Source of the DNA: an uncultured Candidatus Saccharibacteria bacterium | GTDB taxonomy: Bacteria; Patescibacteriota; Minisyncoccia; UBA6257; JAKLIH01 | DNA length: 25,901 nucleotides | Assembly: GCA_964507765.1 (NCBI GenBank) | Contig: CAZDQI010000002.1 | Location: forward strand, 1 to 25,901 | Direction: 5' to 3' | Shown here: positions 1,601 through 24,851 of the stretch, piece by piece | How the letters are laid out: each line of letters starts with the position of its first letter | Numbering within the stretch: the first letter of the stretch is position 1 | Translations under genes and position numbers: made by a program | The notes under the pieces: generated by a model | The model's database searches: none | What the model saw: only the letters and a program-made list of their open reading frames with translations | What the model was told of the DNA's origin: nothing

Positions 1601-2569
1601 TTAAAATCCGATCAATTGAACTTCTAGCTCTAAATAAATTCCAAATTTTTCTAAAACTTTTCCTTTAACAAAAGAAATTAAATTAAAAATATCTTCGCTT
1701 TTGGCTTTGTCAAAATTAATTATAAAATTAGCATGCTTCTCTGATATTTTTGCGCCGTTAATACTAAATCCTTTTAGTCCACATTGCTCGATAAGCCATC
1801 CAGCTGGAACTTGCTTGGTATTTTGACAATCAATAACTAATAAATTATCTTCGTTTCAAATATTTGGATCAAATTCTTCTAATTGTACATTCTTAAACGT
1901 AGAACCAAAATTAGGAAATTCATATGGCTGGCTTTTAATTCTTTTATCTATTGTATTTTTTGTTTTTTCTTTAATTATATTACTATCTAACCGTTTACCA
2001 ATTAAATTTACTTCTCATATTATATTAGCTTTTCTTTTAAAAATACTTTCTCGGTAACCAAAACCACATTCGTTTTGGTTATATTTTTTTATTTCAAAAT
2101 TATATTCATTAAATTTTAATCAATCAATGTTATAAACGTCACTAACAACATCTTTAATTTCAAAATACCCTACACCGCAATTACCACGAACAGAACCACC
2201 AATAGTTCCAGGTATACCAAACAAATCTTCAATACATGAGATTGACTCATTTTGTAATTTGGTTATTAAATTATTTAAATTTCAACCTGCTCCGACATTA
2301 ATTTCAAAATATTCATCATCTATCTTTTTAATTTTAAATCTTTTATTTAATACTTTAATAACCAAACCATCAAAACCGCTATCGTTGATTAAAATATTAC
2401 TGCCTCCACCTAAAACAAAAACTTTTAATCCTTCTTTTTTGGTTAGATTTAAAATATTAACCAAATCATCCACATTATCAATTTGAGTAAAATATTTAGC
2501 AACACCACCAGTTTTACAAGTAGTGAATTTATTTAATTCAACATTTTTTAAAATAATATTATTTTTCAT
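1601..2569 (-). CDS. murB: UDP-N-acetylenolpyruvoylglucosamine reductase, 322 aa (4 in-frame TGA=Trp)
   Basis: GGGSNIL, GIPGTIGG, FGYRESIF, QP..PNFGSTFKN, PAGWLIE, KHANFIIN, LELEV motifs all in one frame when TGA at 2282, 2120, 2015 and 1856 is read through; TAA stop. Confidence 0.93.
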
Positions 2570-2969
2570 ATTGATTTTTATCTATATATCCTTGTAAAAT
2601 CAAACAACTAGCAGTTTGATCGATAATAGATTTTTTATTACTAACATTATCAAGTCTATTCTCTGCTTCTTTGGTCGATAATATTTCATTCACAACATGA
2701 ATATTAATTTCAGGAAGTTTTGTTTTTAGATAATTAATAAATTTTTGAGTAAGTTCTGTTTGTTCTGTGCTAGAAAAATCAAAACTGAGCGGAGTACCAA
2801 TAACAATATCAGTTATATCTTCGTTTTTAATAATTTCAATTATCTGATTAATAACAGTTTTAAAATCTTTATTTATAATAGTTGTATATGGATTAGCTAT
2901 AACATTAGATGCATCACTAACAGAAATTCCTATTCTTTTGTTGCCATAATCAATCCCTAAAAATCTCAT
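2559..2969 (-). CDS. ruvX: YqgF/RuvX family nuclease (pre-16S rRNA maturation), 136 aa
   Basis: LGIDYGNKRIGISVSD, IVIGTP, NEILSTKEA, IDQTASCLILQ motifs; overlaps the murB start by 11 nt. Confidence 0.9.
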   Translation of the reverse strand: MRFLGIDYGNKRIGISVSDASNVIANPYTTIINKDFKTVINQIIEIIKNEDITDIVIGTPLSFDFSSTEQTELTQKFINYLKTKLPEINIHVVNEILSTKEAENRLDNVSNKKSIIDQTASCLILQGYIDKNQYEK

Positions 2970-2995
2970 GGTTTTGTTTTAAGATGTTTTTGAAT

Positions 2996-3757
2996 TTATT
3001 TTGTTAATATAATTGGTTCTTTATCGGTAATAGCAATGCTATGTTCAAAATGAGCAGCAACCTGATCATTTTCTGTAACAAATTCATCTCTTTCGTTTTG
3101 AACAACAGTGGTTTGATCAAAAGTAGCCATTGGCTCAATAGCAATAACATATCCTGGTTTTAATTTAATCCCCGATCCAGGTATGCCATAATTATATATT
3201 TCTGGCTCTTCGTGTAACTGAAACCCAGTTCCATGACCAACTAATTCTTTAATAACATGAAAACCATTTTTGTTTACATGTGACTCTATGGTATAACCTA
3301 TATCACCAACAGTTTTCCCCTTTTTACACATATAAATTGCTTTATTTAAAGACTCTTTGGTTGTATTAATTAATTGTTTTGTTTTTTTATCAACATTACC
3401 AACGCATACAGTAATTGCACTATCAACAAAAAGATTCTTATAGGACAAGCCACAATCAATACTAATAATATCACCGTCATTTAAAATTAAATCTTTGGAA
3501 GCAACACCGTGAACAATAACATTGTTTTTAGACAAGCATAATGTTGAAGGAAAAGGAGTAGACATAAATCCAGCTTTATAGTTTAAAAAAGCAGGAATAC
3601 AATCATTATCTTTAATAAAGTTAAAAGCAAAGTTATCAAGAGTTAGGCCATCTATTCCTGGTTTAATTAATTTAGAAACTTGTACTAATGTTTTTCTTAA
3701 AATTTTACCTCCAATTTTTAATATTTCAATATCTTTTTTACTTTTAATTGTTATCAT
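2996..3757 (-). CDS. map: Type I methionine aminopeptidase, 253 aa
   Basis: VHG, GDIISIDCG, DSAIT, GHGTG..LHEEP, AIEPM, AHFEHSIAIT; ATG at 3757 preferred over the track's TTG at 3772. Confidence 0.95.
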   Translation of the reverse strand: MITIKSKKDIEILKIGGKILRKTLVQVSKLIKPGIDGLTLDNFAFNFIKDNDCIPAFLNYKAGFMSTPFPSTLCLSKNNVIVHGVASKDLILNDGDIISIDCGLSYKNLFVDSAITVCVGNVDKKTKQLINTTKESLNKAIYMCKKGKTVGDIGYTIESHVNKNGFHVIKELVGHGTGFQLHEEPEIYNYGIPGSGIKLKPGYVIAIEPMATFDQTTVVQNERDEFVTENDQVAAHFEHSIAITDKEPIILTK

Positions 3758-4415
3758 GTATTTTTTCTTCAACTATTTGATTAATTTTTCCGGCTATTTC
3801 TTCAATTGAGCCAACGCCATTTATGTCATATAAAACACCTTTCAAGCGAAGAAGTTCAATGGTTGGCACAACATGTTCATTAAATTCTTCAATCCTCTTT
3901 TTAATAACTTCTGGGCGATCATCATCCCTAATAATTAATTCTGTATCGTCATCTTTACAATGTGTAATCCCAGGATCAATATCTAAAGAGTATGTGCGAT
4001 GACATTTAGGACAATAACGACGAATAGAAGACCTATGTAATGATTCTTCATCTGGAATATTTAAATTAAAAACAAAAAAATGGTTGTTTCCCATTCATTT
4101 AAATATTTCATCCATAGCTTCCCCTTCTATTGGCATTCTAGGACTGCCTTCAAAAACAACACCTTGATTAATATCAAAATTCAATAATTTGGAAAATCAT
4201 AAATAAAAAACTAGAGCGGTTGGAACAATAACTCCCTCATCGATATCTTCATTAATTTTCTTAGCTCAAAAATTTTCGTCTCCTTTTAAAGCTCATTCTC
4301 TTAATAAGCTACCGGTTGATATCATTTTTAAATCATACTTATCAGCCAATATTTTGGCTTGAGTTCCTTTACCACAATTGCCTTTACCAATAAAGCTAGC
4401 ATAAATTGTCTTCAT
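3744..4415 (-). CDS. adk: Adenylate kinase with Zn-type LID, 223 aa (4 in-frame TGA=Trp)
   Basis: P-loop-like GKGNCGKGTQA, ISTGSLLRE, FEGSPR, LID CPKC..C..D, RDDDRPEVIKKRI; TGA at 4293, 4266, 4197 and 4095; position upstream of map. Confidence 0.92.
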
Positions 4416-5136: not shown

Positions 5137-5853
5137 TTAATTTTTAATACCAAAAACAGCCATCATGGCTTTAATCTCATCTGGAGGACATCCATATTGA
5201 TCACGTCGATAAGAAAAATATTTATCTTTTAAACAATAAGTACATTCATTAATAAACTCAATATTTGATTCTGGAATTTTTAGCTCTAGAATTTTTTTAA
5301 GTAAAACATATTTTGAATCAAAATATATTTTGTTATTTATATATATAAAAGCATCAGGATAATCTTTAAAATTTTCAACAAAATCTTCTTTGACCTCATA
5401 ACATTTTTCGCATAAAAGTGGAGAAATTCCAACTAAAATATTATTTGGTTTTGAATTAAAATTCTTTTGTATTAAATTTACAGCTTTTTTAATAATATCA
5501 TCATGTAATCCTTTTCAACCAGCATGAAGAAGGCCAATAACATTGTTTTCAAAATCAAAAATATATACAGCGGTGCAATCTGCAATTGTAAAACTTAAAT
5601 AAACATCTTTTAAATTAGTAATTAAACCATCACAATTATGAAACATTTTTTCACTTGTACTAGATACAATTTGTATATTGCTTGTATGCTTTAAGCGACC
5701 AACATATATATTATCAGGATTAATATTATTATTTTTTAAAAAAACATTTCTATTAGTAAAATTACGTTGATCATCAGTAATTTTCATTGGCCCATCTTTT
5801 TTTTCTGAAAACAAGGCAACTAAATTTGAATATGGTTTAAATAAATTAAACAT
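5137..5853 (-). CDS. pgeF: YfiH/PgeF family purine nucleoside phosphorylase / peptidoglycan-editing factor, 238 aa (1 TGA=Trp)
   Basis: H..., DGLIT, IADC, HAG[TGA]KG (family motif HAGWRG; TGA at 5515), C..CYEV, CTYC, YFSYRR; TAA stop. Confidence 0.88.
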
Positions 5854-5909: not shown

Positions 5910-6959
5910 TTAATATTTTAGAGCTAAATTAATTAACAAATTAATTAATTGGGTATATTTTAAACCAGTGCATTCTCATAGTTTAGGAAACATACTAATG
6001 TTAGTAAAGCCTGGAATAGTATTTAATTCATTAACATATATTTCATTTTTATCAGTTAGAAACATGTCAACTCGAGCAAATCCAGAACATTCAAGAGCCA
6101 AATATGCATACATAGCAGTATTTTGAATAGCTTTTGTTACTTTTTTAGGTAGATTTACTGGTATTACTAACTCGGCACCATCAGATTTTATATATTTATC
6201 ATCGTAAGTATAAAATTCATCTTTTGGTATTACTTGCCCAGGCAAGGAAGTAAAAACATTTGAATTTCCAATAATAGAACATTCTATTTCCTTTCCAGAA
6301 ATATACTCTTCAATAATAATTTTTTTATCATGTTTAAAAGCGTTAACTATAGCAGGTTTAAATTCTTTATCATTATAAACTTTGCTAATACCAACTGAAG
6401 ATCCCGTATTGGCTGGTTTTACAAAAAAAGGAATTTTTAATATTTTTTGTATTTTTTTAAAATTCCAATTATCAATTTCTGTTTTTTTAATACTAATAAA
6501 ATTAGAAGTTTTGATATTAGATGCTTTTAACAGTTTTTTTTGAATCACTTTATCCATATTAATACTTGAAGATAAAACATCGCATCCAACGCATTTTATA
6601 TTATATGTTTTAAGCAATCCCTGAATAGTTCCATCTTCTCCGTTTAACCCGTGCAAAATAGGAAAACAAACATCAATCGATTTAGTTTTCTTGGTTTTTA
6701 AGTTTAAAGTATACCCTTTCGAGTCTTTTAAAATTAAATAACCATTGCTTAAACTATTTAATTTTTGCTTAATAATTTTTTCGTCGATCGATATATTATT
6801 AGGTAATAAATATCAGTTTCCCTTTTTATCAATATATACTAAAGTTAAAATATATTTGTTTTTATCTAAAGCTTTAATGATATTATTAGCCGATCAAACT
6901 GATACAGAATGTTCATTGGATTTTCCTCCAAAAACAATTAATAAATTTATTGGTTTCAT
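5910..6959 (-). CDS. ddl: D-alanine--D-alanine ligase, 349 aa (3 TGA=Trp, 1 TGG)
   Basis: FGGKSNEHSVS, G.W, FPILHGLNGEDGTIQG, FVKPANTGSSVG, omega loop FYTYDDKY, NELNTIPGFT.ISMFPKL[TGA]E; TGA at 6894, 6813 and 5976; TAA stop. Confidence 0.93.
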
Positions 6960-7018: not shown

Positions 7019-8182
7019 CTATATTTGCTTTTCAGTCCTGATTGTAAGAGCTATCATTGGCAAAAGACTGATAATACCAAGCACTAGGATAAGTGAACGG
7101 TCAGCTAAAAAGCCAATAATTGGATTAAGTATAAACAAAGATAAGGAGCTAAATAACCCTACAGTTGATAGAATAGTTGCTCGCATGCTTGAAGGAATAT
7201 TTTCATTTAAATGGGCATAAACAAATTCAAAATGAGTTAACCCAAACCCACCAGCAAGGATAATTAAAAGTATAACCGTAAATATATTAGGCATTAAAAC
7301 CACTAATAGAAAGAAAAACATAACAATAATACCTGAAAATTTTAAATAGTTATTAAATCCTAGCCTCTTTTCAAAAAAACCAAAGTTGCTAGAAACAATA
7401 ACTTGGGCTAAAACTAAAATTGCATGAAAATAGCCAAAATATATAATAGGAATATTTAATTTACTTAGTATTGGTTGATATAATCAAATTATAAAATAGC
7501 CAGCACTATTAATTAAAATACCATTTAAGCTTATTTTTCGAATAAAACTATTGTTTTTGACAAATTTGATACCTTCGGTAAAAATCTTAAAATACTTTTT
7601 AGCTTCATTCTCCATTTCATATTGTTTTGGTTCTTTAAATCTAGATATGAATAAAAGCGCAATAAATATTGAAATAGATGAAAATATTATTGGCATATTT
7701 AATCCCATTTTTGATCCAATAAAGCTACCAATTGGAGCTGCAATTAAAATTGCTATTAATTTTCAAGAATAAGCTTTACCAAATAATTTTTTACATTCTT
7801 TCTCTTCCCCAATATCTTTAAGCGAATCAAAAAATAGGGCTTTATCAGCGCCAGACATTAAAGCAACACCTAAAGCTAAAATAAACTCACAAACAAGAAA
7901 CATATAGAAACTAGGAATAAATCCATAAATTAAAACACCAATACCATAAAATATTAAACCCAGTATTACTGATTTTTTACGACCAAAATAGTCAGCTACA
8001 ACCCCAGTAGGAACTTCTAGTATAAAATTCCAAAACATAAACCAAGATTGTAAAAACTGAACTTGAAACATTGAAATTCCACCCCATTGAGTAAAAAAAG
8101 GAATCAAAACTCCGCTAACGAAAAACAAATCTTTAAAAAAACTAAATCCGTAATAATATTTTTGTATTTGATTTTTTTGCAT
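7019..8182 (-). CDS. Major facilitator superfamily transporter, ~387 aa (2 TGA and 3 TGG Trp)
   Basis: EVPTGVVADYFGRK MFS motif A, ALMSGADKALFFD, RATILS; three track ORFs are one frame joined through TGA at 7763 and 7484; TAG stop; start 8182 chosen because 8212 lies inside a hairpin. Confidence 0.85.
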
Positions 8183-8194
8183 AAAAGATAATTT

Positions 8195-8231
8195 AAATAC
8201 ACGCCAAAACATTAAGCTTTGACGTGTATTT
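8195..8231. terminator. 14-bp hairpin immediately after secY (probable terminator)
   Basis: AAATACACGCCAAA / TTTGACGTGTATTT, one G-U pair on the minus-strand RNA, 9-nt loop; minus-strand U tail is weak. Confidence 0.5.
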
Positions 8232-8242: not shown

Positions 8243-9514
8243 TTAGTAGTCATATTCTCTCATTGCCAATTGAGCTTCAATTGCATTCTTGACCTCAATA
8301 GCAATAGCAACAATAAGTAATAACGACGTACCGCCGATTTCAAAAGTAGTGACATGGGTGACTTTTTCTAGAGCCATTGGCAAAACAGCAACTAGGCCTA
8401 GAAATATAGCACCAAATAATGTTATCTTCTTAGATACTTTGGATAAATAGGAAACGGTATTTTCCCCTGGACGATAACCAGGAATAAATCCACCATTTTT
8501 TTGCAAATTATCTGATATTTCTTTTGGTTCAAATGTGATAGATGTATAGAAAAATGTAAACAGAAATACTAAAACGAAATAGATGGAAGCATAAAATACT
8601 TTGTTTTCAATTAAAGTTGTAAGAAAATTAGAAGCGGTAACTAAAAACGTCAAATTGGTTGTGGCTAACATTTGGCTAATTAAAGCTGGAAAAGTTAAAA
8701 TAGATAAAGCAAAGATAATAGGAATAACGCCAGCTTGGTTAACTTTTAATGGTAAGAAGGTTGTAACACCTCCATACATTTTATTACCTCTAACATGCTT
8801 AGCGTATGAAACTGTAAGTCTTCTTTCCCCTTCAGTTAAGTATACAATGGCAACAACCATAATTAACATAATTAAGAAGAATAAAGCAACACCAATTCAA
8901 GCAGCTATTGTTTCAGCTGACATAATGGTAGCAAATAGACTTTGAGGTAAACTAATAATAATACCTGAGAAAATAATCAAAGAAATACCATTGCCTAATT
9001 TCTTTTGAGTAATAATTTCTCCAATAAATACAATAACGAAAGCAGCAGCAGTTAAAAGCAAAACATTACGTCATAATTCAAGAGGAGAATTAATAGTAAT
9101 AATTTTTTGCATGCGCAAAATATTTAAAATACCAACCGCTTGTAAAATAGTTAAAGGTAAAGTTAAATATTTAGTTCATTTTTCAAACTTACGACGGCCT
9201 TCTTCTCCGTTTTCATGAAAAGTCTCTTTAAGTGATGGTATAATGATAACTACTAATTGCATGATAATAGAAGCAGAAATGTATGGACTAACACCTAAAA
9301 GACCTATAGATAAATTACCAAAAGCACCACCAGTAAATATATCAAATAAACCAAAAACTTTACTTTGTTCTAAAAAGGTTTTGATCTGATTTAAATCAAC
9401 ATTAGGTATAGGAATAGCGGCAATTAATCGAAAAACAAGTAATCAAAATATAATGGTTAACATGTTTTTGCGTAGCTCTTTGTTTTTAAATAATTTAATG
9501 AAATTTTTAATCAT
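8243..9514 (-). CDS. secY: Preprotein translocase subunit SecY, 423 aa (4 TGA=Trp)
   Basis: LGVSPYISASIIMQL, GEIITQKKLGNGISLIIFSGII, GVIPIIFA, FIPGYRPG, GGTSLLLIV; TGA at 9443, 9176, 9071 and 8897. Confidence 0.96.
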
Positions 9515-9558: not shown

Positions 9559-9993
9559 TTATTTACTAAATTCTACCTTACCACCAGCCTTTTCAATTAA
9601 GCTGGCTCCTAGTTTTGTAATTTTGCAATCTTTCAAAAACAATTTTTTATTAATTGAATCTACTTTACCAATAATTTTAAACTTAGTAATTCTTTTAGGA
9701 ACTAGTTTAAGATTACGGAGTGATTCTAAATTAACTTTAAAATTATCTGGACATTTTTGAACTAAAGTTTTTAGTTGAATCTCAAAAATATCAACTTTTT
9801 TAACTTTATTTGTGGCGCCTCTTAATTTAGGCAAACGCAATATTTGCTCTTTTAATTGAGCTGGAATCTTTCTGCCAGCATGAGCTTTTTGCCCTTTCAT
9901 ACCTTTACCACTGTAAGTACCTCGTTTGCCACCACGGCCAACACGAGGAGATTTTTTGATCTTTGTTTTTGGTTTTAAATTATGAACTTGCAT
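9559..9993 (-). CDS. rplO: 50S ribosomal protein L15
   Basis: RVGRGGKRGTYSGKGMKGQKA, IEKAGG; position before secY. Confidence 0.95.
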   Translation of the reverse strand: MQVHNLKPKTKIKKSPRVGRGGKRGTYSGKGMKGQKAHAGRKIPAQLKEQILRLPKLRGATNKVKKVDIFEIQLKTLVQKCPDNFKVNLESLRNLKLVPKRITKFKIIGKVDSINKKLFLKDCKITKLGASLIEKAGGKVEFSK

Positions 9994-10016
9994 TTTAATA
10001 AATTTAATACGCTAAA

Positions 10017-10658
10017 TTATTTTTCTTCGTCTTCTTGAGTTTTAGCTTCGACTTTTATGTTATTTTTTTCGTTTTCTAGATTGTAAATGTGTGCAATTTG
10101 TTTCAAACCTTCAATTGTAGCTTTACCATTATTGATTGCACTATGAGAACCACTTAATATTTTACAGGTAACATTTTTAATTCCAGCTAATATCATTATA
10201 TTACGAACAACACCGCCAGCAATAACTCCTTTACCTTCTTTAGCAGGTTTAATTAAGATGCGACTAGCACAGAACTTACCTTCAGCTTTAAATGGAACAG
10301 TATCATTAATAACAGGAACAGTAACAATATTTTTCATAGCTTCTTTTTTAGCCTTATCAATAGCTTTAGGAACGTCAACACCTTTGGCTGTACCAATAGC
10401 AATTTTACCTTTTTTATTACCAAGAAGCATGGTAACACTAAAGCTCATATGTTTACCCCCAGCGGTAACACGAGTGACACGTCTAATATCAGCAATTAAT
10501 TGATCAAAATCACTATTCTTTTTAATAGAGCTATTTTCAGAAGAAGATCTTCTGTTGTCTCTTCTGTTTCTTTCAAAAGGCTTTTTAGAACCAAAATTAT
10601 CTTTTCTAATACCCTTTTTAACAGCATCGTTTGTTTTAATATTATCGTTTGTCTTCAT
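10017..10658 (-). CDS. rpsE: 30S ribosomal protein S5 with basic N-terminal extension
   Basis: RRVTRVTAGGKHMSF, GVIAGGVVR. Confidence 0.96.
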   Translation of the reverse strand: MKTNDNIKTNDAVKKGIRKDNFGSKKPFERNRRDNRRSSSENSSIKKNSDFDQLIADIRRVTRVTAGGKHMSFSVTMLLGNKKGKIAIGTAKGVDVPKAIDKAKKEAMKNIVTVPVINDTVPFKAEGKFCASRILIKPAKEGKGVIAGGVVRNIMILAGIKNVTCKILSGSHSAINNGKATIEGLKQIAHIYNLENEKNNIKVEAKTQEDEEK

Positions 10659-10660
10659 AA

Positions 10661-11020
10661 TTAAAATTTAATTCCTAATTTACGCAATTCGTCGGCTAAA
10701 ACTTTTATACGACCATGATATTTAAATCCGCCACGATCAAAAACTATTTCATTAATTTTTTTATCCTTTAGCTTTTCACCTAATTTTTGAGCAACTAAGA
10801 TACTTTTAGCTAATTTTTTATCTTTAACATCTTTTAATTCTAAATCAGAGGCAGAAACTAATGTTTTTTGTTGTTCATCATCAATAGCTTGAGCGTAAAT
10901 ATGATTATTAGATTTGAATATGGATAAACGAGGTTTACTGCTTGTACCAGAAACTTTTGATCTAATGCGTTTATGAACTCTTGTTCTTTTTTCTTTTGTT
11001 ATTTTTGCTGTATTTTGCAT
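10661..11020 (-). CDS. rplR: 50S ribosomal protein L18
   Basis: PRLSIFKSNNHIYAQ, VFDRGGFKYHGRI. Confidence 0.96.
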   Translation of the reverse strand: MQNTAKITKEKRTRVHKRIRSKVSGTSSKPRLSIFKSNNHIYAQAIDDEQQKTLVSASDLELKDVKDKKLAKSILVAQKLGEKLKDKKINEIVFDRGGFKYHGRIKVLADELRKLGIKF

Positions 11021-11052
11021 AATAGATTTATTAAAATATTTAATTTAATATT

Positions 11053-11598
11053 TTAGGCTGCTTTTTTACCACTCTTTTTAACGACTCTTTCATCTTGATA
11101 TCTAATACCTTTCATTGAATATGGGTTTGTTTTTCTTTGAATACGTACTAAAGCAGAAAAATCGCCAACTGATTTTTTAGATATACCGGAAATGCTAATA
11201 ATAGTTTTATCAACTGTTACTGTTAAATCGGTAGGAATTTCTAAATCAACTGGATGAGAATAACCAACATTTAAAACAAGGATATTTCCTTTGACTTCAG
11301 CTTTATACCCAATACCTTCAATAATTAAGCGCTTTTCAAAACCAGCAGATACACCAATAATACAATTATTAATAAGAGCTCTTTCTGTTCCTCAGATAGC
11401 AAAAAATTCACGACCTTCTTTTCGTGGTTTTAATATAATTTCTTTATCATCTTGCTTTATTTCAATCAAAACATCATTACTAATAGTATGAGTTAATGTT
11501 CCTTTTTGACCGGTAAAGGTTAAAAGTTTTTTACTTTCGTCAAATTCAACTTTGACATCATCTAGTATTTTTATTGGTTGTTTGCCTATTTTGGACAT
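11053..11598 (-). CDS. rplF: 50S ribosomal protein L6, 181 aa (1 TGA=Trp)
   Basis: MSKIGKQPI, AI[TGA]GTERALI (11392), GIGYKA, VGYSHP, PY..KGIRY. Confidence 0.95.
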
Positions 11599-11608
11599 AT
11601 TAAAAAGT

Positions 11609-12001
11609 TTAAAATATTTCAAATAATACTTCTCCGCCAAGTCGTTGTTTTTTAGCTACTTTAGCTGGCATAATGCCTTTAGGTGTAGATAAAACAACAG
11701 TAGATTGAGTTTTAGTATGAATCTCAGGATATTTAATATAAACTCTTTTACTTGGTTTTGAAATGCGTTTAACGTCTTGTACGTATGATACATCGTTTTT
11801 ACCATACTTAAGTACGACTTCAATAAAAGATTTTTTATCTTTAGCAGAAATAGAAAAATCGCTAACATAACCTTCTTTTTTCAAAACTTTTAAAATTTCT
11901 ATTTTAACCTTAGAAGAAGGTAAAATAATTTTTTCTTTCCCAACACGTACAGCATTCTTAATGCGAATTAACATGTCGCTAATTGGATCACAAATAGTCA
12001 T
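11609..12001 (-). CDS. rpsH: 30S ribosomal protein S8
   Basis: DPISDMLIRIKNA, RISKPSKRVY, LSTPKGI, GGEVL. Confidence 0.96.
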   Translation of the reverse strand: MTICDPISDMLIRIKNAVRVGKEKIILPSSKVKIEILKVLKKEGYVSDFSISAKDKKSFIEVVLKYGKNDVSYVQDVKRISKPSKRVYIKYPEIHTKTQSTVVLSTPKGIMPAKVAKKQRLGGEVLFEIF

Positions 12002-12024
12002 AATATATATTTATTTTAAGTTAA

Positions 12025-12210
12025 TTATCAACTTGATTTTTTAACCCCTGGTATTTCACCTTTAGAAGCTAATTCGCGAAAACAAATACGGCATAGACCG
12101 AAGTCTCTCATATAGCCTCTTTTTCGACCACAGTTAAAACAGCGATTTACTTTTCTAGACTTGAATTTTGGTGTTTTTTTAGCTCTTGCAATTGTAGATT
12201 TTTTTGCCAT
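12025..12210 (-). CDS. rpsN: 30S ribosomal protein S14 type Z (Zn-binding), 61 aa; ends TGA(Trp)-TAA
   Basis: C-x2-C...C-x2-C; C-terminus GVKKSS-TGA-TAA matches the conserved terminal SW. Confidence 0.96.
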
Positions 12211-12247
12211 GAATATAAATTTAAGTAAATTTAATTTTCAAATTTAA

Positions 12248-12823
12248 TTATTTTTTTGAAGGAGTAATTGGTTTTAGTGGAAAACCTAAAGCTTCAAACA
12301 ATTTAATCGACTTTTCTTTTGAATCAGTGTTAGTAACAAAATTAATTTCTATACCAAATCCGGCTTTAATAACATCATATGATAATTCAGGAAAAGCATT
12401 CATTTCTTTAATACCAATAGTTAAGTTACCAGTTTTGTCAAAATTCTTACGATCAACGCCTCAAAAATCACGAGTACGAGGAAAAACAATATTAACAAGT
12501 CTATCAATAAAATCTGCCATCTTTTTGCCACGTAAAGTTACGCTTAATCCAATAATACTTCCTTCTCTTAATTTAAAACCAGCAATTGATTTTTTAGCCT
12601 TACAAATTTTTGGTTTTTGACCAGTAATACGAGCTAATTTCTCACTAAAATCTTGGACCATATTATCGCTATTTCCATCAGTTCTAGCTAATATTTTGCC
12701 AATACCTGAATTAATACAAACTTTAGTTATTTTAGGAATGGCCAATTCATTGTCTTGGTTAAATTCTTTTTTGAAAGCTTGCTTAGCTTTATTTGTATAA
12801 TTATCAGTATATGATATTTTCAT
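12248..12823 (-). CDS. rplE: 50S ribosomal protein L5, 191 aa (1 TGA)
   Basis: ITGQKP, SIAGFKLREG, VTLRG, PRTRDF[TGA]G (12461), FD.TGNLTIGIKE, FPE, LGFP. Confidence 0.95.
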
Positions 12824-12827
12824 AATA

Positions 12828-13154: not shown

Positions 13155-13164
13155 AATTATTGTT

Positions 13165-13533: not shown

Positions 13534-13558
13534 AATAACAAATTAAGTAATTAAGTTA

Positions 13559-13587: not shown

Positions 13588-13595
13588 GGGTTAGA

Positions 13596-13847: not shown

Positions 13848-13867
13848 AAAACAGATTTATATATAAA

Positions 13868-14050
13868 TTATTTTTTATTAATAATGGTTAAAATACGAGC
13901 GATAGTTTTCTTTAAATCACCAATTTCTTTGTAATTCTTTACTTTTCCAAAACGATTATTTAAAGTTAAAACATTTAGCTTTTGTTTGCTTTCGTTTAAA
14001 ATGTTAACTAGTGATTTAGTATCTTTGTTTTTTAAATCTTTGATTTTCAT
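13868..14050 (-). CDS. rpmC: 50S ribosomal protein L29
   Basis: LKKTIARILTI; position between rplP and rpsQ. Confidence 0.92.
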   Translation of the reverse strand: MKIKDLKNKDTKSLVNILNESKQKLNVLTLNNRFGKVKNYKEIGDLKKTIARILTIINKK

Positions 14051-14055
14051 AAAAT

Positions 14056-14466
14056 CTATCGTTTAATAATTTTTGTTTTAAAAGGAAGTTTGTAACCAAC
14101 TTGTTTTAAAGCAACCATAGCGTCTGATTCAGCAATACCATCTAACTCGAAAATGATACGTCCAGGTTTAACTTGAAAAGCATAATGATCAACATCTCCT
14201 TTGCCTCCACCCATACGTTTTTCAGGTGGACGTTTTGATATTGGTTTATCAGGAAAAACGCGAATTCATATTTTACCACCCTTACGAATAAAACGAAGTA
14301 AAACACGACGAGCTGATTCTATTTGGCGACTATTTATTCTTTTGTTTTCTAAACTACAAACACCAAATTGACCGTATTCAAGTGAAACTCCGCGACTTTC
14401 AAAATCACGTTTAAGCCTTCTACCTTTTTGCGCTTTTCGATGTTTTGTTCTTTTTGGAGTTAGCAT
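14056..14466 (-). CDS. rplP: 50S ribosomal protein L16, 136 aa (1 TGA=Trp)
   Basis: MLTPKRTKHRK, QIESARR, GKI[TGA]IRVFPDKP (14266), RMGGGKG; TAG stop. Confidence 0.96.
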
Positions 14467-14519
14467 ATTGTATTATTTACTAAGATAATTAATTTTACTA
14501 ATTTAAATTTAATTTGACC

Positions 14520-15194
14520 TTATTTTATATTATTCTTAAAAGCTTCACCTTTATATATTCAGACTTTGATTCCAATCTTACCATAAGTACAGCGAGTATA
14601 AACAGTTCCATAATCAATTACAGCTCTAAGAGTATTTAACGGTAATTTACCTTCTTTAACCCAGTCAGAACGAGCAATATCAGCACCGTCTAAACGACCA
14701 GTAACATATATTTTTGCTCCTTTAACTTCACGGTTAGACATAATACGTTCAAGATATTTTTTAATAGTTCTTCTGTAAGGAAGCCTTCTTTCAATATCAT
14801 CACGAATATCAAAGGCAACAATTTGAGCAGATAAAAATGGCTTTTTAACTTCTTCGATATTAATACTAATACTGTATTTGTCAGAAATTTTATTTTTTCT
14901 TCTAAACTTGTTTAAACTTTTTTCAAGTGATTTTTTAATATCATCTAAACCTTCACCTTTGTGTTTAATAATCATACCAGGTTTAGAAGTAAAAATTACA
15001 ACGTTAATTCGATCACCTTTGCGTTCAATTTCAACGGTTTGATAATGAGCTTTTTCAAGCAACTTATCAAGATCGCGTCTAATTAATTGATCTTCAGCTA
15101 ATTTTCAAGGAAAATTATCTAAATCAAATCAACGTGATGTTCAGTTTTTGTTTATGCCTAATCTTTTAATTGTTGGATTGATATGTTGAGCCAT
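14520..15194 (-). CDS. rpsC: 30S ribosomal protein S3, 224 aa (4 TGA=Trp)
   Basis: RLGINKN[TGA]TSR[TGA]F, GRLDGADIARS, PLNTLRA.IDY, GIKV[TGA]IYKGE; TGA at 15141, 15129, 15105 and 14559. Confidence 0.96.
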
Positions 15195-15211
15195 AATTCT
15201 AATTAAATATA

Positions 15212-15712
15212 TTAATTAATTACTTTTCTTTGAATAATGTTTTTATTTTGACCTTTTTGCGCTTTAACGTGGGTTTTTTCTTTTCTTTGAATTTGATTTT
15301 TATCTTTGTTTATTGTTCTCTTTTTTGTTTTACTTTTACTTTCAATGTCTTTAATATCAATTTTCTTTAATTTCTTTTCATCAACTGGTTTTAATGTCAT
15401 GACAACATGACAAGAGCGATGACGGATCAAATAAGCTGATCCTCTAGCTCTAGGTCTGGTTCTTTTAAGGGTTGGACCATCAGTAACATTGATTTTTGAA
15501 ATATATAAGTCTTTAGGATCGATTTGGTGATTGTGAATAGCATTAGCTTTAGCTGATTTTAATAACTTCAAAATATCAACTCCAGATCTCTTAGGAGAAT
15601 ATTTTAGCTGACGCTCAGCTTGTTCAATACTTAAACCTTTAATTAAACGAGTAACTAATCTGACTTTTCGAGGAGCTATTCTTAGGTATTTTAATGAAGA
15701 TATTATTTCCAT
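15212..15712 (-). CDS. rplV: 50S ribosomal protein L22 with basic C-terminal extension
   Basis: LRIAPRKVRLV, KSAKANA, LKRTRPRARG. Confidence 0.96.
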   Translation of the reverse strand: MEIISSLKYLRIAPRKVRLVTRLIKGLSIEQAERQLKYSPKRSGVDILKLLKSAKANAIHNHQIDPKDLYISKINVTDGPTLKRTRPRARGSAYLIRHRSCHVVMTLKPVDEKKLKKIDIKDIESKSKTKKRTINKDKNQIQRKEKTHVKAQKGQNKNIIQRKVIN

Positions 15713-15739
15713 AGCAAAAAATTATTAATATTAATATAA

Positions 15740-16027
15740 TTATTTTTTTCCTTTTTCAGCTGCTTTTTGAAGCTTACCACCGTGTTTAACAAATTTGCGA
15801 GTTGGTGCAAATTCACCTAAACGATGACCTACCATTTCTTCAACAACTTTAACTTCAATAAAGTTTTTGCCGTTGTGAACATTGAAGACAAAGCCAATCA
15901 TTTCTGGAGATATAGTTGAAGCACGAGCTCATGTTTTTATCGGATCTTTGTCACCAGGTGTTTTTTTAGCAACTTTTTGCATTAATTTTTCATCAATGTA
16001 TGGACCTTTTTTTAGTGAACGAGACAT
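15740..16027 (-). CDS. rpsS: 30S ribosomal protein S19, 95 aa (1 TGA=Trp; missing from the ORF track)
   Basis: [13 protein letters not shown][TGA]ARAS (15929), [18 protein letters not shown]. Confidence 0.96.
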
Positions 16028-16052
16028 AATGTATTATTAAATAATTTATTAA

Positions 16053-16892
16053 TTATTTTTTAGTTTTTTTAGTTTTACGACGAGAAACAATAAATTTATT
16101 TGAATATTTATTTACTTTTCTTGTTTTACGACCGCCAGTAACATTTCCTCATTTATCTTTAGGTCTTTTAGTACCACGGGAATGTTTACCTTTACCACCA
16201 CCATAAGGATGATCACAAGCATTCATAGCACTACCACGAACAGTAGGACGAATACCTTTATGTCGATTGCGACCAGCTTTACCAACATTAATTAAATTGT
16301 GTTCATTGTTGGATGTGGTACCAATAGTAGCAAAACAATTTTTTGAAACTTTTCTAACTTCAGTTGAAGGCATTTTAAGATAAGCATAGTTACCTTCTAA
16401 ACCAATCATGGTTAAATAAGAACCAGCACTGCGTGCAAGCTTACCTCCTTGTTCTGGTCTTAATTCAACATTGTGAACTTGAGTACCACTTGGAATGCTA
16501 TATAACTTAACACGGTTACCAATTTTGAATGGAGCAGTATCATCACAAACAATAGAGTCACCTGCCTTCAAACCAGCAGTAGCGATTGTATAGGCTCTAG
16601 CTCCATTTCTAAATAAAACTAAAGCAATAAAGGCAGTGCGATATGGATCATATTCAATTGATTCAATTTTAGCTGGGATACCTTTATGAATTTGACCAAA
16701 TTCAACTAAACGATAATTCTTTTTTACAGCTCCGCCTTTGTGTCGCATTGATATTTTACCTTGACTATCTCTGCCTTGAGCAGGCTTGTAGCCTTTAACT
16801 AAAGGTTTGTATGGTTCTTTTTTTGAAAGAATCGTACGATCAATATCAATGTGATGTCTTTTAGTTGGTGTTGTAGGATTAAATTTTTTCAT
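16053..16892 (-). CDS. rplB: 50S ribosomal protein L2, 279 aa (1 TGA=Trp)
   Basis: IEYDPYRTAFIAL, ARSAG, RPTVRGSAMNACDHPYGGG, PKDK[TGA]G (16149). Confidence 0.96.
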
Positions 16893-16893
16893 A

Positions 16894-17280
16894 TTATATA
16901 GCTAAATCAATTTTATAACCTGGTTTAAGAGTAACAATGGCTTTTTTATAACCACCTTTACGAGATTTTGGTTTAATATAGCCAAGTCTCTTAGGACTAA
17001 CAGTTAAGAATATAACATTAACTTTATCAACTTTTACTTTATAGGTATTTTCAACTAGATGTTTTATCATAACTTTATTCATCCTTTTCAAAACTAAGAA
17101 AACATATTTATTTTGAGTAGATAAATCATTAGTTTTTTCAGTAATATATGGTTGCAAATATGTATCAAATTTTAAATTTGAAAGATCAACATCTTTAACA
17201 TCAACTTTTTGTGTATTTTCTACTACTGTTTCTTTTGATTTTTCTTCTTTTTTTGTTTTTTTACCAAATAGAGGTGACAT
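16894..17280 (-). CDS. rplW: 50S ribosomal protein L23 with N-terminal extension
   Basis: PYITEK, NKYVF, VDKVN, KKAIVTL; position between rplD and rplB. Confidence 0.92.
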   Translation of the reverse strand: MSPLFGKKTKKEEKSKETVVENTQKVDVKDVDLSNLKFDTYLQPYITEKTNDLSTQNKYVFLVLKRMNKVMIKHLVENTYKVKVDKVNVIFLTVSPKRLGYIKPKSRKGGYKKAIVTLKPGYKIDLAI

Positions 17281-17289
17281 AAAATTGTT

Positions 17290-17937
17290 TTAATCTTTTT
17301 TAAATGTTTTTGATATATTCTCAATTGAATCTTTTAAAATGATAACATATTTGTAATTCAATAAAGTAACTAAGTCAATTGAATTGTCAACAGTTGTAAA
17401 AACGAAAGGAATATTACGAGAAGCGCGAATAATGCTTTTGTTGCCATTATCAACAATGATATAGGCTAAGCTGTTATTCTTTTTCTTGATATCAACAAAA
17501 TTACTCATAACGTTGCTCATTTCTTTGGTTTTGTCTTCCTTTAAATCTATTTTGTCGATAATAACCAATTCATTATCTTTTATCTTTGCACTTAAGACCA
17601 TAGCTAATGCTTTCTGTTTCATCTTTTTATTGATTGCTCTTTTAAAATTAGCTTCATTTTGTCTAGGCCCAAAAGTAACACCACCATGTCTTCAAAGAGG
17701 TGATCTATTTGATCCAACTCTAGCTCTACCTGTGCCTTTCTGTCTTCATGGTTTTTTACCACCACCGGATACCTCTGATCTATCTTTGGTACAAGCTAAA
17801 GGTTGGCGACGGTTACTTAACATTGAAGTATAGACTTGATGAACTGTGTCAGGATTGAACTTTACATTAAAAATACTATCATTAAGTTCAATTTGTTCAA
17901 TTACTTCGTTTTTTTGATTTTTAACATCTAATTTCAT
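17290..17937 (-). CDS. rplD: 50S ribosomal protein L4, 215 aa (2 TGA=Trp)
   Basis: TKDRSEVSGGGKKP[TGA]RQKGTGRAR.GS.RSPL[TGA]RHGGVTFGP; TGA at 17746 and 17692. Confidence 0.97.
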
Positions 17938-17942
17938 AATAT

Positions 17943-18563
17943 TTATTTAGAAATAATTTTAAGAAGAGTTTTGTTTCTACCAGGAATTGAACCTCTGAAA
18001 AATATTAAATTGTTTTCTTTGTCAACTTTTACAATTTTAACATTTACCATAGAATATGTTTTTCCGCCAGTTCTTCCTGCCATTTTCTTTCCTTTAGCGA
18101 CTCTTTGAATACCAGTGTCTCCAATTGAACCTGGTTCTCTTAAAGCATGTTTAGTACCGTGAGTTTTAGAAGCACCATGGAAATGATGTCTTTTAACTAC
18201 ACCTTGAAAACCTTTAGCTTTGGTAACACCTTGAACTTGAACAGCATCTCCTTCTTGAAAAATATCAACTGTTATTTCATCACCAACATTAAACTTGGAA
18301 GGATCTTCAACTCTAAATTCACGAATATATCTAAAGGTTTGGGCTTTTTCTCCTAATAATTTTTTCAATGCAGATATAACCGATTTTGATAATCTTCTTC
18401 TGGATTGAAAACCACAAACAATGGCATTATACCCTTCTTTTTCTTCGGTTTTAATTTGAATGACAGTCATAGGACCAGCTTCAACAACAGTTACAGGAAT
18501 AGCTCCGACTGTTTCGTCTGGCAATTGTGTCATTTTTATTTTTTCGGCTAATATGAAAGACAT
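17943..18563 (-). CDS. rplC: 50S ribosomal protein L3
   Basis: PVTV, KAKGFQGVVKRH, HG.KH..REPGSIG, GKKMAGR. Confidence 0.96.
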   Translation of the reverse strand: MSFILAEKIKMTQLPDETVGAIPVTVVEAGPMTVIQIKTEEKEGYNAIVCGFQSRRRLSKSVISALKKLLGEKAQTFRYIREFRVEDPSKFNVGDEITVDIFQEGDAVQVQGVTKAKGFQGVVKRHHFHGASKTHGTKHALREPGSIGDTGIQRVAKGKKMAGRTGGKTYSMVNVKIVKVDKENNLIFFRGSIPGRNKTLLKIISK

Positions 18564-18610
18564 GATCTTAAAAGTTTAATGTATTAAAAAATTTTTAAAA
18601 GGCTCGTCAT

Positions 18611-18633
18611 CAAAAAACTGAGAAAACTCAGTT
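18611..18633 (-). terminator. Terminator-like hairpin between rpsJ and rplC
   Basis: AACTGAG/CTCAGTT 7-bp stem, 4-nt loop, T run on the minus strand; the stem is weak. Confidence 0.35.
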
Positions 18634-18642
18634 CTTTGAATA

Positions 18643-18966
18643 TTAAGTCTTGATTTCAGCTTCAACTCCAGCAGGTAAATTAAGGTTTGTCAAAGATTCT
18701 ATAGTTTTGCTATTAGAATTTAAAACATCAATCAATCTTTTATGAACTCGAATCTCAAATTGTTCTTGTGATTTCTTCTTAATAAAGGTTGCACGATTAA
18801 CTGAATATTTCTTTTTTTCTGTTGGAAGCAATATAGGGCCAACCACATTAGCACCACTACGCAAAGCAATATCAATAATTTGCTTGCAGGAATTATCAAC
18901 CAAGTGGTGATCATATGATTTTAATCTAATTCTAATTTTAGTTTTATTTAAGGTACTGTTAGTCAT
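18643..18966 (-). CDS. rpsJ: 30S ribosomal protein S10
   Basis: [36 protein letters not shown]. Confidence 0.97.
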
Positions 18967-18975: not shown

Positions 18976-20175
18976 TTAGGCAATAATTTTTGTTACAACA
19001 CCAGCGCCAATAGTTTTACCTCCTTCACGGATAGCAAATCTTTGTTTTTCTTCCAAAGCAACTGGAGCGATTAATTTGATCTTAAAGGTTGCTGTATCGC
19101 CAGGCATAACCATTTGGACGCCTTCGGCTAAAGTAACATCACCTGTAACATCAGCGGTACGAATGAAGAATTGTGGTTTGTAACCAGAGAAGAATGGAGT
19201 ATGTCTACCACCTTCATCTTGAGACAAAACAAAAACTTCAGCTTCAAATTCAGTATGTGGTGTAAGTGATCCTGGTTTAGCAATAACTTGACCACGTCTA
19301 ATATTTTCTTTTTTAATACCACGTAATAATAAACCAACATTATCACCAGCTTGAGCATCTTCCATACTCTTGTTGAACATTTCAACACCAGTAACAACGG
19401 TTTTAGTTGTTGGTTCATAACCAACAATATCAGCTTCATCATTAACTTTTACCATACCTCTTTCAATTCTACCAGTAACAACGGTACCACGGCCTTCAAT
19501 AGTAAAGATATCTTCAATTGGCATAACAAATGGTTTGTCGGTATCACGTTCTGGAGTTGGGAAATATGAATCAATAGCATCTAATAATTTAACAACAGCT
19601 TGAACATGTTCATCTTCAAAAGATGTTGCTTCAGTAGCTTTTAAGGCAGATCCACGAACTATAGGGATTTCATCGCCTGGGAATTCATATTTTGTTAATA
19701 AATCACGGATTTCTGCTTCAACTAAATCGATTAATTCAGGATCAGAAACCATATCTGTTTTATTTAAGAAAACAACTAATGCTGGAACACCAACTTGACG
19801 AGCAAGAAGAATGTGTTCTCTGGTTTGAGGCATAGGGCCATCAGCAGCTGAAACAACTAAGATAGCACCATCCATTTGAGCTGAACCAGTAATCATGTTT
19901 TTAATGTAGTCAACGTGACCTGGACAGTCAATATGAGCATAGTGACGATTGTCTGTTTCATATTCTGAGTGATGAACATTAATAGTAATACCACGAGCTT
20001 TTTCCTCTGGAGCTTTATCAATTTCATCAACATTAGATGATTTTTTAATTAAACCCTTTAAGAAAAGAGTATTTAAGATAGCGGCTGTCAATGTTGTTTT
20101 TCCATGATCAACGTGACCAATTGTACCAACATTCATATGTGGCTTGGAGCGCACAAATTTTTCTTTTTCTGCCAT
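18976..20175 (-). CDS. tuf: Elongation factor Tu
   Basis: [32 protein letters not shown]. Confidence 0.99.
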
Positions 20176-22229: not shown

Positions 22230-22236
22230 ATCTTCT

Positions 22237-24354
22237 TTATTCTTTTGCAGTTGGTTTTCTTTTAGAAATAATTTCATCAGCAATATTTTTTGGAACTTCT
22301 TGATAGCTATGGAATTCCATACTAAATGTACCTCTGCCTTCAGTAAATGATCTTAAATTGGTTGCATAACCAAACATTTCTGAAAGTGGAACTAATGAAT
22401 CAACAATACGTAATCCCATACGTTCATCCATTTTTTCAATACGTCCACGTTTAGAATTAATATCACCAATAACATCTCCTAAGAAGTCTTCTGGGGTAGT
22501 TACTTCTAATTTCATAATTGGCTCAAGAATAACTGGTTGAGCTTTTTTAGCTGCATCTTGGAAAGCCATAGAAGCTGCTATTTTGAAAGCAAAATCAGAT
22601 GAGTCAACATCATGGAAAGAACCATCATAAAGAGTAACTCTTAAATCAGACATTGGGTAATTAGCTAAAATACCTTTATCAGTAGCTTCTTTAGATCCTT
22701 TTTCAACTGAAGAAATAAACTCTTGAGGAATAACACCACCTTTAATTTGACTAACAAATTCAAATCCTTTGCCTCTTTCAAGTGGTTCAACCCTTAATCA
22801 AACATGACCATATTGGCCTTTACCTCCAGATTGTCTAATGTATTTACCTTCAGCTTCGGATGTTCCATTAATTGTTTCTCGATATGCAACTTGTGGTTTA
22901 CCAGAGTTAAGTTCAACATTAAACTCACGTTTCATACGATCAATTAAAATATCAAGATGTAATTCACCCATACCACCAATAATGGTGTCATTGGTTTCTT
23001 CATCTGTCTTGATTTGGAATGTAGGGTCTTCATCAGAAAGTTTTTTCAAAGCTTCTCCCATTTTGTCTTGATCGCTTTTAGTTTTAGGTTCAACTTTCAA
23101 TCAAATAACTGGATCTGGAAATGAAATATTTTCTAAAACAATTGGGTGATTAGGATCACATAATGTATCACCTGTTTTGGTATTTTTCAAACCAACAGTA
23201 GCAGCAATATCACCAGCTTCAATATCGTCAATATCTTCTCTTTTGTTAGAAAACATACGAAGAATACGTCCAATTCTTTCTTGACTGTTTTTATTTGAAT
23301 TTAATAAATAAGATCCTTTTTCTAATCTACCGGAATAAACTCGGAAAAATGACAATGTACCAACATATGGGTCAGTAGCAATCTTAAATACTAAAGCAGA
23401 AAATGGTTCTTTCTCATCTGCTTTACGAAGAATAGTTTCACCTTTAAGGTTATCACCTTCAACTGGTTTAACGTCTAGTGGACTTGGTAAAAAGTCAACA
23501 ACAGCATCTAACATTAATTGAACACCTTTGTTTTTGAAAGCAGATCCACATAAAACAGGAACGATTTTATAATCAATGACTGATTTTCTTAAAGAAGTTC
23601 TTAATTCTTCTTCAGTAAAATTAGCATCACCATTTAAATATCTTTCCATTAAAGCATCATCTTCAGATGCAATTTTTTCAACTAATTCATCTCGTTTTGA
23701 TTGAGCTATATCTTTCATGTCTTCAGGAATATCTGATAATGTTAATTTTTCACCAAGTTGACCTTCGAAATTAACTCTTTTCATTCTGATTAAATCAATA
23801 ACTCCTTCAAAATTAGCTTCTTTGCCAATAGGTATATTTAAAGCAATCGCATTAGGAGTTAATCGCTCTTTGATCATGTTTAAGTCATTATCAAAATCAG
23901 CACCCATACGGTCAAGCTTGTTAACAAAACATAAGCGTGGAACTAAATATTTATCTGCTTGTCTTCAGACAGTTTCTGATTGAGGTTCAACACCGGCAAC
24001 ACCATCAAAAACAACAACAGCACCATCTAGAACACGCAAAGAGCGTTGAACTTCAGCAGTAAAGTCAATATGCCCTGGTGTGTCAATAACATTGATTTTA
24101 TATTTATAATTTTCATCATTGTTTCTATAACTTGTTATTCAGAAACAAGTAGTAGCAGCAGATGTAATAGTAATACCTCTTTCTCTTTCTTGTTCCATCC
24201 AGTCCATAACAGCTGCGCCTTCATGAACTTCTCCAATTTTATGAGAAAGACCAGTATAAAATAAAATACGCTCTGATGTAGTTGTTTTACCGGCATCAAT
24301 ATGTGCAATAATACCAATATTACGTATTTTTTCAAGAGGATATTCTTGAGACAT
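22237..24354 (-). CDS. fusA: Elongation factor G, 705 aa (4 TGA, 1 TGG)
   Basis: [12 protein letters not shown][TGA], DTPGH, SETV[TGA]RQA, NKLD, GQYGHV[TGA], [10 protein letters not shown]; four track ORFs share one frame, with TGA at 24139, 23965, 23101 and 22798. Confidence 0.98.
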
Positions 24355-24386
24355 GATTAAATTTTAAAATATTTGTTAAAAATGTA

Positions 24387-24851
24387 TTATTTACCAAAAT
24401 GAGCAAATGCCTTATTAGCTTCAGCCATTTTATGAACGTTTTGTTTCTTTTTAATAGCATTACCTTCACCTTTAAAAGCAGCTATTATTTCATTGGCTAA
24501 TTTTTCGCTTACTGGTTTTCCTTTTTGAGAACGAGAAAAATCAATGATTCATCTCATAGCTAAAGTTAAACGTCTTTTTCCTGAAACAATAACAGGAACT
24601 TGGTAGTTGGCACCACCAATTCTTTTACTTTTAACTTCAAGAGTTGGTCCAACATTTTTTAAAGCTGTTTCTAAAACAAATAACCCATCATTTTTGGTTT
24701 TTTGTTCAAGAATGTCAATCATATCATAAATATTTCTACGAGCAATGGTTTTTTTACCACATTCCATAATCATATTTATAAACTTAGTCACAATAGGGCT
24801 TTTGTATTTACCATCAGCTTTATATTTTTTTTCATCAACAATAAGATCCAT
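24387..24851 (-). CDS. rpsG: 30S ribosomal protein S7, 154 aa (1 TGA=Trp)
   Basis: KFINMIM..GKK, EVKSKRIGGANYQVP, LAMR[TGA]II (24549), HKMAEANKAFAHF. Confidence 0.96.

Follow-up and report, generated by a model that had tools for sequence, protein, structure and literature searches.

We are highly confident that the 25.9-kb stretch of DNA analysed here (contig CAZDQI010000002.1; 28.9% G+C; hereafter the window) belongs to the chromosome of an uncultured, tiny-celled Patescibacterium of the family JAKLIH01 (order UBA6257, class Minisyncoccia/Paceibacteria) in which UGA encodes Trp genome-wide (translation table 4) and only UAA and UAG serve as stops. With TGA taken as a sense codon during gene calling, the long open reading frames (ORFs) gave 37 genes, all on the minus strand. 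Their order, S12, S7, fusA, a pair of hypothetical genes (hyp1/hyp2), tuf, then S10 to L15 and secY, is that of the classical str-S10-spc region; secY is followed by an MFS transporter gene, ddl, pgeF, a HAD hydrolase gene, adk, map, ruvX, murB, a Lys-rich ORF and a gene for an MscS-like channel. An initial annotation of this DNA had reported 43 in-frame TGA codons, and our independent count gave the identical number in the same 20 of the 37 genes: 15 in 11 ribosomal protein (r-protein) genes, four each in fusA, secY, adk and murB, three each in ddl, hyp1 and hyp2, two in the MFS gene and one in pgeF. All of the Trp-position motifs quoted there were present as well. Under table 11, the longest ORF has 402 amino acids (aa; EF-Tu) and EF-G, SecY, S3 and L4 are broken, whereas all four are full length under table 4. 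TGA sites are spanned by Pfam domains, and in murB the FAD_binding_4 and MurB_C domains share a single ORF only if TGA is read through. Every gene ends in TAA or TAG, as had been claimed: the 37 stops, that of L29 included, are 34 TAA (92%), 3 TAG and no TGA. The r-protein genes were also said to use TGA for all 15 of their Trp codons. The 15 TGA codons stand, but Trp codons in these genes number 16, as codon 178 of S3 (14661-14663) is TGG, the only one among them; the whole window has eight TGG codons.

The amino acid read at UGA was assessed by alignment. With the L2 protein as query, one scan found 34 loci among GTDB species representatives. The E. coli operon was added to these, and the window proteins, with each TGA masked as X, were aligned to the 26 loci that contain no in-frame TGA. 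Trp made up 253 of the 473 residues found at the TGA columns in these standard-code relatives, compared with a background of 0.63%. This excess is far beyond chance. Gly was found only once in 473 residues, against a background of 8.4%. Trp also scored best by BLOSUM62 log-likelihood (-57.1, versus -86.6 for Tyr and -113.7 for Gly), and 11 TGA columns were invariant or nearly invariant Trp (positions 18, 22 and 212 of S3, 64 and 82 of L4, 76 of S17, 101 of S7, 248 of L2, 67 of L16, 69 of L6 and 33 of S19). Genes without homologues in the scanned loci were compared with PDB sequences, which showed Trp at position 328 (PKLW) in 4/4 and at position 49 in 3/4 Ddl homologues, and at position 113 (HAGW) in 4/4 PgeF homologues. 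In S14, whose C terminus reads ...KKSSW, the final Trp is encoded by TGA and is directly followed by TAA; Trp is also the terminal residue in E. coli and in all relatives. In the window, UGA occupies Trp positions of conserved genes and terminates none of the 37 genes.

The established recoding in the candidate phyla radiation (CPR) is UGA to Gly (table 25), as in the Gracilibacteria/Absconditabacteria (JAEDAM01). A Gly reading of the window would fit the shared phylum, the low G+C content and the in-frame TGA codons, and coding density gave no separation of tables 4 and 25. However, the single Gly at the TGA columns and its low likelihood speak against such a reading, as do the exchange of TGA with TGG but never with GGN among relatives, the tRNA-Trp body of the clade's tRNA(UCA) and the position of the window in the Paceibacteria; UGA did not occur at Gly-conserved positions. 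We regard Gly as highly improbable. The initial annotation had assigned UGA to Trp, not Gly, and had named TGA columns aligning mainly to Gly or to random residues as the outcome that would speak against this. The column tallies, the PDB alignments, the interchange of TGA and TGG and the lack of TGA stops all agree with its assignment.

Recoding was shared by nine related loci (L002-L009 and L031), whose proteins are 62-93% identical to those of the window. These relatives carry TGA at the sites of the window, for instance at 31 of 32 in L002 and at 17 of 27 in L009. Occasional swaps between TGG and TGA were seen in both directions. In the orthologous genes of the nine relatives, Trp is encoded by 168 TGA and 21 TGG codons, and across the recoded lineage TGA makes up 84-89% of Trp codons. 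Their 179 stops are 162 TAA, 17 TAG and no TGA. In the standard-code relatives, TGA accounts for 42 of 432 stops and internal TGA is missing; the few that seemed internal proved to be the real stop codons of L15 and L2. That the TGA codons are damage, whether through pseudogene formation, errors in sequencing or assembly, or contamination with a contig of a known table-4 clade (such as Mollicutes or an insect endosymbiont), has in favour of it nothing besides the in-frame stops under table 11. As the same sites recur in nine genomes that different studies assembled independently and include invariant Trp columns of essential genes, as phylogeny excludes Mollicutes and Proteobacteria, and as murB and ddl are present, we give this explanation a negligible probability. 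A dual, context-dependent UGA (Trp internally, stop at some gene ends) or an incomplete or ambiguous reassignment is likewise very unlikely. Although the window offers just 37 gene ends for judging it, TGA stops are absent from these and from the 179 ends in relatives, the TGA of S14 is the last sense codon before TAA, and the published account of the family (PMC13092985) gives 0% UGA stops and reports neither C-terminal extensions nor release factor 2 (RF2).

To place the window, a neighbour-joining tree was built from 19 proteins (3253 columns, recoded TGA columns masked, 100 bootstraps). The window grouped with L002-L007 and L009 at 100% bootstrap, with L002 as its sister, and this recoded clade was nested among the Paceibacteria/Minisyncoccia. 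Inside it lies L003 (JAKLIH010000004.1), which comes from the name-bearing assembly of GTDB family JAKLIH01 (GCA_022709715.1) and shows ~80% protein identity to the window across the operon; placement with this genome is what assigns the window to the family. The deepest recoded branches, L009 and L031, are 62-68% identical to the window. All nearest relatives are Paceibacteria metagenome-assembled genomes (MAGs), and an L30 gene was not found between S5 and L15 in the operon of the window. Absence of L30 is a hallmark of the CPR. The Patescibacteria-like affiliation proposed by the initial annotation is borne out by the tree and by this operon. Placement in the Mollicutes or another known table-4 clade had been named there as a possible refutation; Mollicutes were excluded, and the clade that the window joins includes the name-bearing genome of a family with published UGA=Trp. 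As the window is phylogenetically unrelated to Mollicutes and insect endosymbionts, its reassignment is independent of theirs, as had also been proposed. Adjoining the recoded clade is L027 (DAOTOJ01, Brennerbacteraceae), whose genome is tabulated among the standard-code relatives in PMC13092985.

At the DNA level, the window is 91.2% identical to L002 (JAQUZI01) over 18.7 kb. It is identical to no species representative of GTDB r232, where L002 was the best match, and an exact look-up of its EF-Tu in a large protein collection returned no entry. With this divergence from the nearest representative and an unmatched EF-Tu, the sequences suggest that the window and L002 belong to the same genus but probably to different species, the window representing one more species that has probably not been sampled before. 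The 'binchicken' and related third-party annotation (TPA) MAG records (L004, L006-L010, L020, L031, L032) carry the title 'uncultured Candidatus Saccharibacteria bacterium'. In the tree, the ones that were included fall in the Paceibacteria, several inside the recoded clade, and judged by this placement the Saccharibacteria labels of these public records, relatives of the window among them, look wrong.

The initial annotation had also suggested a search for tRNA-Trp(UCA). No tRNA gene was found by a tRNA scan of the window, and no tRNA-Trp by a scan of 13 operon loci. Scanning metagenome contigs for a tRNA-Trp-type D-arm and body with a UCA anticodon loop gave 120 hits, most of which were unrelated, being tRNA arrays, contigs of high GC content or DNA of probable organelle or phage origin, and none of the 120 contigs matched the window or the clade loci directly by blastn or tblastx. 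Among the hits were low-GC, TGA-recoded contigs (L041, L052, L058, L066, L080, L116 and L136), in most of which tRNA(UCA) lies near tRNA-Thr(GGT), often also with tRNA-Tyr and tRNA-Thr(UGU). Their link to the clade is indirect, through RarA: the RarA encoded next to tRNA(UCA) in L052 has homologues with 82-89% identity on JAKLIH010000002.1, CAZCTX010000003.1, CAZUBO010000006.1 and CAYYXO010000002.1, which are other contigs of the assemblies that contain L003, L004, L006 and L008. On JAKLIH010000002.1 (L157, from the assembly of L003), tRNA-Thr, tRNA-Tyr and tRNA-Thr are followed by a 75-nt tRNA(UCA) at 1811-1885, and a tRNA-Trp(CCA) lies at 14503-14575, upstream of secE-nusG-rplK. Further tRNA(UCA) copies were present in L158, L159, L166 and L168; CAZXWA01 and ENA/JGI contigs are among the carriers. 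The tRNA sought is therefore found in the clade (L157, L166, L168, L052 and L080), including the name-bearing assembly, and is expected by extension in the organism of the window. The L157 tRNA cluster (Thr-Tyr-Thr-UCA) also contains a LAGLIDADG-like ORF and a '23S rRNA IVP' ORF.

The tRNA(UCA) has a regular cloverleaf structure in which the A1-U72 pair and the discriminator base G73 are as in E. coli tRNA-Trp; A1-U72 and G73 are identity elements for TrpRS. It has a 27:43 mismatch (G.A or A.A), which leaves the anticodon stem at 4 bp. ARAGORN labels it 'SeC' by its anticodon alone. Selenocysteine was rejected, as Trp is the residue aligned with the TGA sites and as this tRNA, 74-75 nt long, has an ordinary 7-bp acceptor stem and a short variable arm. 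Its identity to a relative's tRNA-Trp(CCA) and to E. coli tRNA-Trp is 82-85%, compared with 66-75% for the clade's own tRNA-Trp(CCA). The closer match of tRNA(UCA) than of the CCA gene to canonical tRNA-Trp hints at an anticodon change in the main tRNA-Trp, not at recruitment of a spare duplicate. On this tentative interpretation, tRNA(UCA) may derive directly from the canonical tRNA-Trp gene (C34 to U), with the CCA gene at secE as a diverged copy. If so, both Trp codons could be read by a single tRNA, and reassignment would have come about through an anticodon mutation of the main tRNA.

Together, these observations suggest a model in which a tRNA with a canonical tRNA-Trp body and a UCA anticodon, found in the name-bearing genome and related contigs and presumed for the organism of the window, would read UGA, and UGG by wobble, with tRNA-Trp(CCA) retained beside secE-nusG-rplK. 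RF2, absent according to the literature, would be missing from this organism too: JAKLIH01 genomes are reported to lack prfB, which their relatives possess (PMC13092985; bioRxiv 10.64898/2026.05.24.727570). Reassignment most likely arose by codon capture under AT pressure, given 29% G+C and the few UGA stops already seen in the nearest standard-code relatives, after which TGG would have drifted to TGA until the latter reached its present share of Trp codons. On this model it happened once, in the ancestor of the clade, and independently of the events in Mollicutes, insect endosymbionts and the UGA=Gly Gracilibacteria/Absconditabacteria.

Several points weigh against this reading. About one-third of the TGA columns (adk, parts of secY, L5 and L14) are variable, with R, K, N, L, Y, F or I in relatives; such columns are uninformative, not contradictory. 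The window has no tRNA gene and is unable to contain prfB, and the decoding tRNA and RF2 loss come from the clade and the literature. The evidence for recoding is sequence-based, and that for family membership is the 19-protein neighbour-joining tree. Finally, tRNA-UCA was reported in just two of four JAKLIH01 genomes (PMC13092985); the other two are incomplete MAGs. One of the two without it belongs to genus JAKLIH01, the apparent genus of the window, and with no tRNA in the window itself this would be compatible with near-cognate decoding of UGA as Trp by tRNA-Trp(CCA) in this species, with no UCA tRNA, as proposed for Zinderia and Stammera. We consider this unlikely, as the genomes without tRNA-UCA are fragmented and as tRNA(UCA) recurs throughout the clade, with copies in L157, L166, L168 and the L052/L080 groups, which makes it probably ancestral. 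Decoding by tRNA(UCA) remains the preferred mechanism.

The affected genes, all on the minus strand, are located as follows. The gene for S7 (rpsG, 24387..24851) has one TGA (24549-24551, AMR-W-I), aligned to Trp in 8/8 standard-code relatives, and fusA (EF-G, 22237..24354) has four, at 24139-24141 (TCF-W), 23965-23967 (ETV-W-RQ), 23101-23103 and 22798-22800. The hypothetical genes hyp2 (21374-22144; TGA at 21827-21829, 21779-21781 and 21575-21577) and hyp1 (20582-21361; TGA at 21251-21253, 21044-21046 and 20903-20905) are paralogues with 45% identity, and the Trp of their common FIK-W-AK motif is TGA in both; they showed weak helix-turn-helix matches and no Pfam family. The tuf gene (EF-Tu, 18976..20175) has no Trp codon and is therefore a code-independent marker. 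The S10-spc operon (9559..18966) comprises S10, L3, L4, L23, L2, S19, L22, S3, L16, L29, S17, L14, L24, L5, S14, S8, L6, L18, S5 and L15. Its TGA codons lie in L4 (17746-17748 and 17692-17694), L2 (16149-16151), S19 (15929-15931), S3 (15141-15143, 15129-15131, 15105-15107 and 14559-14561), L16 (14266-14268), S17 (13620-13622), L14 (13447-13449), L5 (12461-12463), S14 (12028-12030, the conserved C-terminal Trp and last sense codon before TAA) and L6 (11392-11394). In secY (8243..9514), the four TGA codons (9443-9445, 9176-9178, 9071-9073 and 8897-8899) fall in hydrophobic or aromatic columns. Downstream, the MFS transporter gene (7019..8212) has two TGA (7763-7765 and 7484-7486) and four TGG codons, ddl (D-Ala-D-Ala ligase, 5910..6959) three TGA (6894-6896, 6813-6815 and 5976-5978, the last in PKL-W), the pgeF/YfiH-family gene (5137..5853) one (5515-5517, in the HAG-W-KG motif) and adk (adenylate kinase, 3744..4415) four, in columns that are variable in relatives (4293-4295, 4266-4268, 4197-4199 and 4095-4097). 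The murB gene (UDP-N-acetylenolpyruvoylglucosamine reductase, 1601..2569) also has four (2282-2284, 2120-2122, 2015-2017 and 1856-1858) and ends in TAA.

Other features of the window and its relatives were noted alongside. A 60-aa L29 gene (ATG...TAA, 13868-14050, minus strand), shorter than the usual cut-off for ORF lists, fills the apparent gap between L16 and S17. Three r-proteins are longer than in E. coli: S5 (10017-10658; 213 versus 167 aa) and L23 (16894-17280; 128 versus 100 aa) by N-terminal extensions, and L22 (15212-15712; 166 versus 110 aa) by a Lys-rich C-terminal tail. The Lys-rich ORF (1229-1444, minus strand, 71 aa) consists almost entirely of K/A/T/V/P repeats (KKATKKVVKK...), like histone H1 or a Lys-rich nucleoid protein; that it is coding is unproven, as the opposite strand gives a Phe-rich ORF of equal length. 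Between pgeF and the MFS gene, ddl is absent from L002 (19873-19935), the 91% identical sister, and in L005 and L006 it follows MFS/secY. Judging from these loci, this cell-wall gene is polymorphic in its presence or position inside one genus. The interval between fusA and tuf is a variable insertion site. The hyp1/hyp2 pair (window 20582-22144) is common only to L002 (4739-6302); L008 (150-6617) has ~6.4 kb of other genes between fusA and tuf, and fusA was not seen in ~6.6 kb upstream of tuf in L003 (1-6695), L005 and L007 (1-6630). The inserted DNA of relatives codes for 980-1177-aa repeat or surface-like proteins, Fic, an ABC-F ATPase, a radical-SAM protein and MTAP, among others. Near tuf, L003 (3049-3471) and L008 (3847-4293) encode a ~140-aa protein with a GGQ motif (SGHGGQNVNK), like the stop-codon-independent rescue factor ArfB, a resemblance of possible relevance given the reported loss of RF2 in this lineage. 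Upstream of S12 in L031 (2-1336), the GyrB gene appears to hold an intein/homing-endonuclease insert (LGWFIGDGC..., then the conserved GyrB C terminus).

Upstream of S12 in the window, 607 bp (25295-25901) contain no ORF. A 24-nt palindrome, CCGCCAAGACATATGTCTTGGCGG, occurs twice in this stretch, 277 bp apart, each copy followed by TATTT(T)ATTGACTT; from their sequence, the two copies look like repeated terminator-plus-promoter modules. The counterpart in L002 (766-1310) contains a run of N. As the window stops at this point and L002 is interrupted by a scaffold gap, assemblies probably break at the repeats. No Rfam family reached its gathering score in the window, and the sole match to the 607-bp stretch was at chance level.

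Reassignment of UGA to Trp is already known in this family, to which the window probably adds one more species. A study in Nucleic Acids Res (April 2026; PMC13092985) described 'a new independent case' of UGA-to-Trp in family JAKLIH01 (order UBA6257, class Minisyncoccia), based on four genomes including GCA_022709715.1, with 0% UGA stops, 150-303 Codetta columns and no RF2. The gTranslate preprint (bioRxiv 10.64898/2026.05.24.727570, May 2026) covers 16 JAKLIH01 genomes and newly assigns UGA=Trp to 12. Among the flagged genomes, most have tRNA-Trp(UCA) and none has prfB; the authors add genus GCA-2747955 as a second, separate Patescibacteria case and describe Patescibacteriota as the first phylum with tables 4, 11 and 25. 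The main text of the 2021 Codetta survey gives no Patescibacteria UGA-to-Trp case, and an Eggerthellaceae paper (PMC13462651, August 2026) still counts just three earlier phyla, which indicates that the JAKLIH01 result is recent and not yet widely absorbed. The caution of the initial annotation that novelty be checked was justified, as UGA-to-Trp had been described in this family, the first Patescibacteriota in which it was reported. Stop codons are seldom reassigned to sense, and every independent instance is a test of the codon-capture and ambiguous-intermediate models. Patescibacteriota thereby become the only bacterial phylum known with three codes (4, 11 and 25), a point already in print for JAKLIH01. 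In practice, table 11 fragments the genes of this lineage, and table 25 puts Gly in place of Trp.

Compared with known systems, the window most resembles the published JAKLIH01 genomes, with which it shares the clade (100% bootstrap with L003), UGA=Trp, the lack of UGA stops and low G+C. TAA makes up 92% of stops in the window versus a published 82-88% UAA, both tRNA-Trp(UCA) and tRNA-Trp(CCA) occur in the clade, and the window differs from its sister L002 in having ddl at its present site. Mycoplasmatales/Entomoplasmatales are alike in UGA=Trp, low G+C, small genome, TGA as the main Trp codon and, going by the clade and the literature, the pair of tRNA-Trp(UCA) and tRNA-Trp(CCA) and loss of RF2. 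However, they belong to the phylum Bacillota and reassigned UGA independently, and Mollicutes have no cell wall; the window has Paceibacteria neighbours and carries the peptidoglycan genes murB and ddl. The Gracilibacteria/Absconditabacteria (JAEDAM01, table 25) share the phylum, the stop-to-sense change of UGA and low G+C, but they are of another class and read UGA as Gly through tRNA-Gly(UCA), whereas the lineage of the window reads it as Trp. Hodgkinia, Zinderia, Nasuia, Stammera, Fastidiosibacteraceae XS4, Pinguicoccus/Organicella and the Eggerthellaceae (PMC13462651) are likewise reduced, host-dependent bacteria in which Trp captured the UGA stop; they differ in belonging to unrelated phyla and, in some cases, in having no UCA tRNA.

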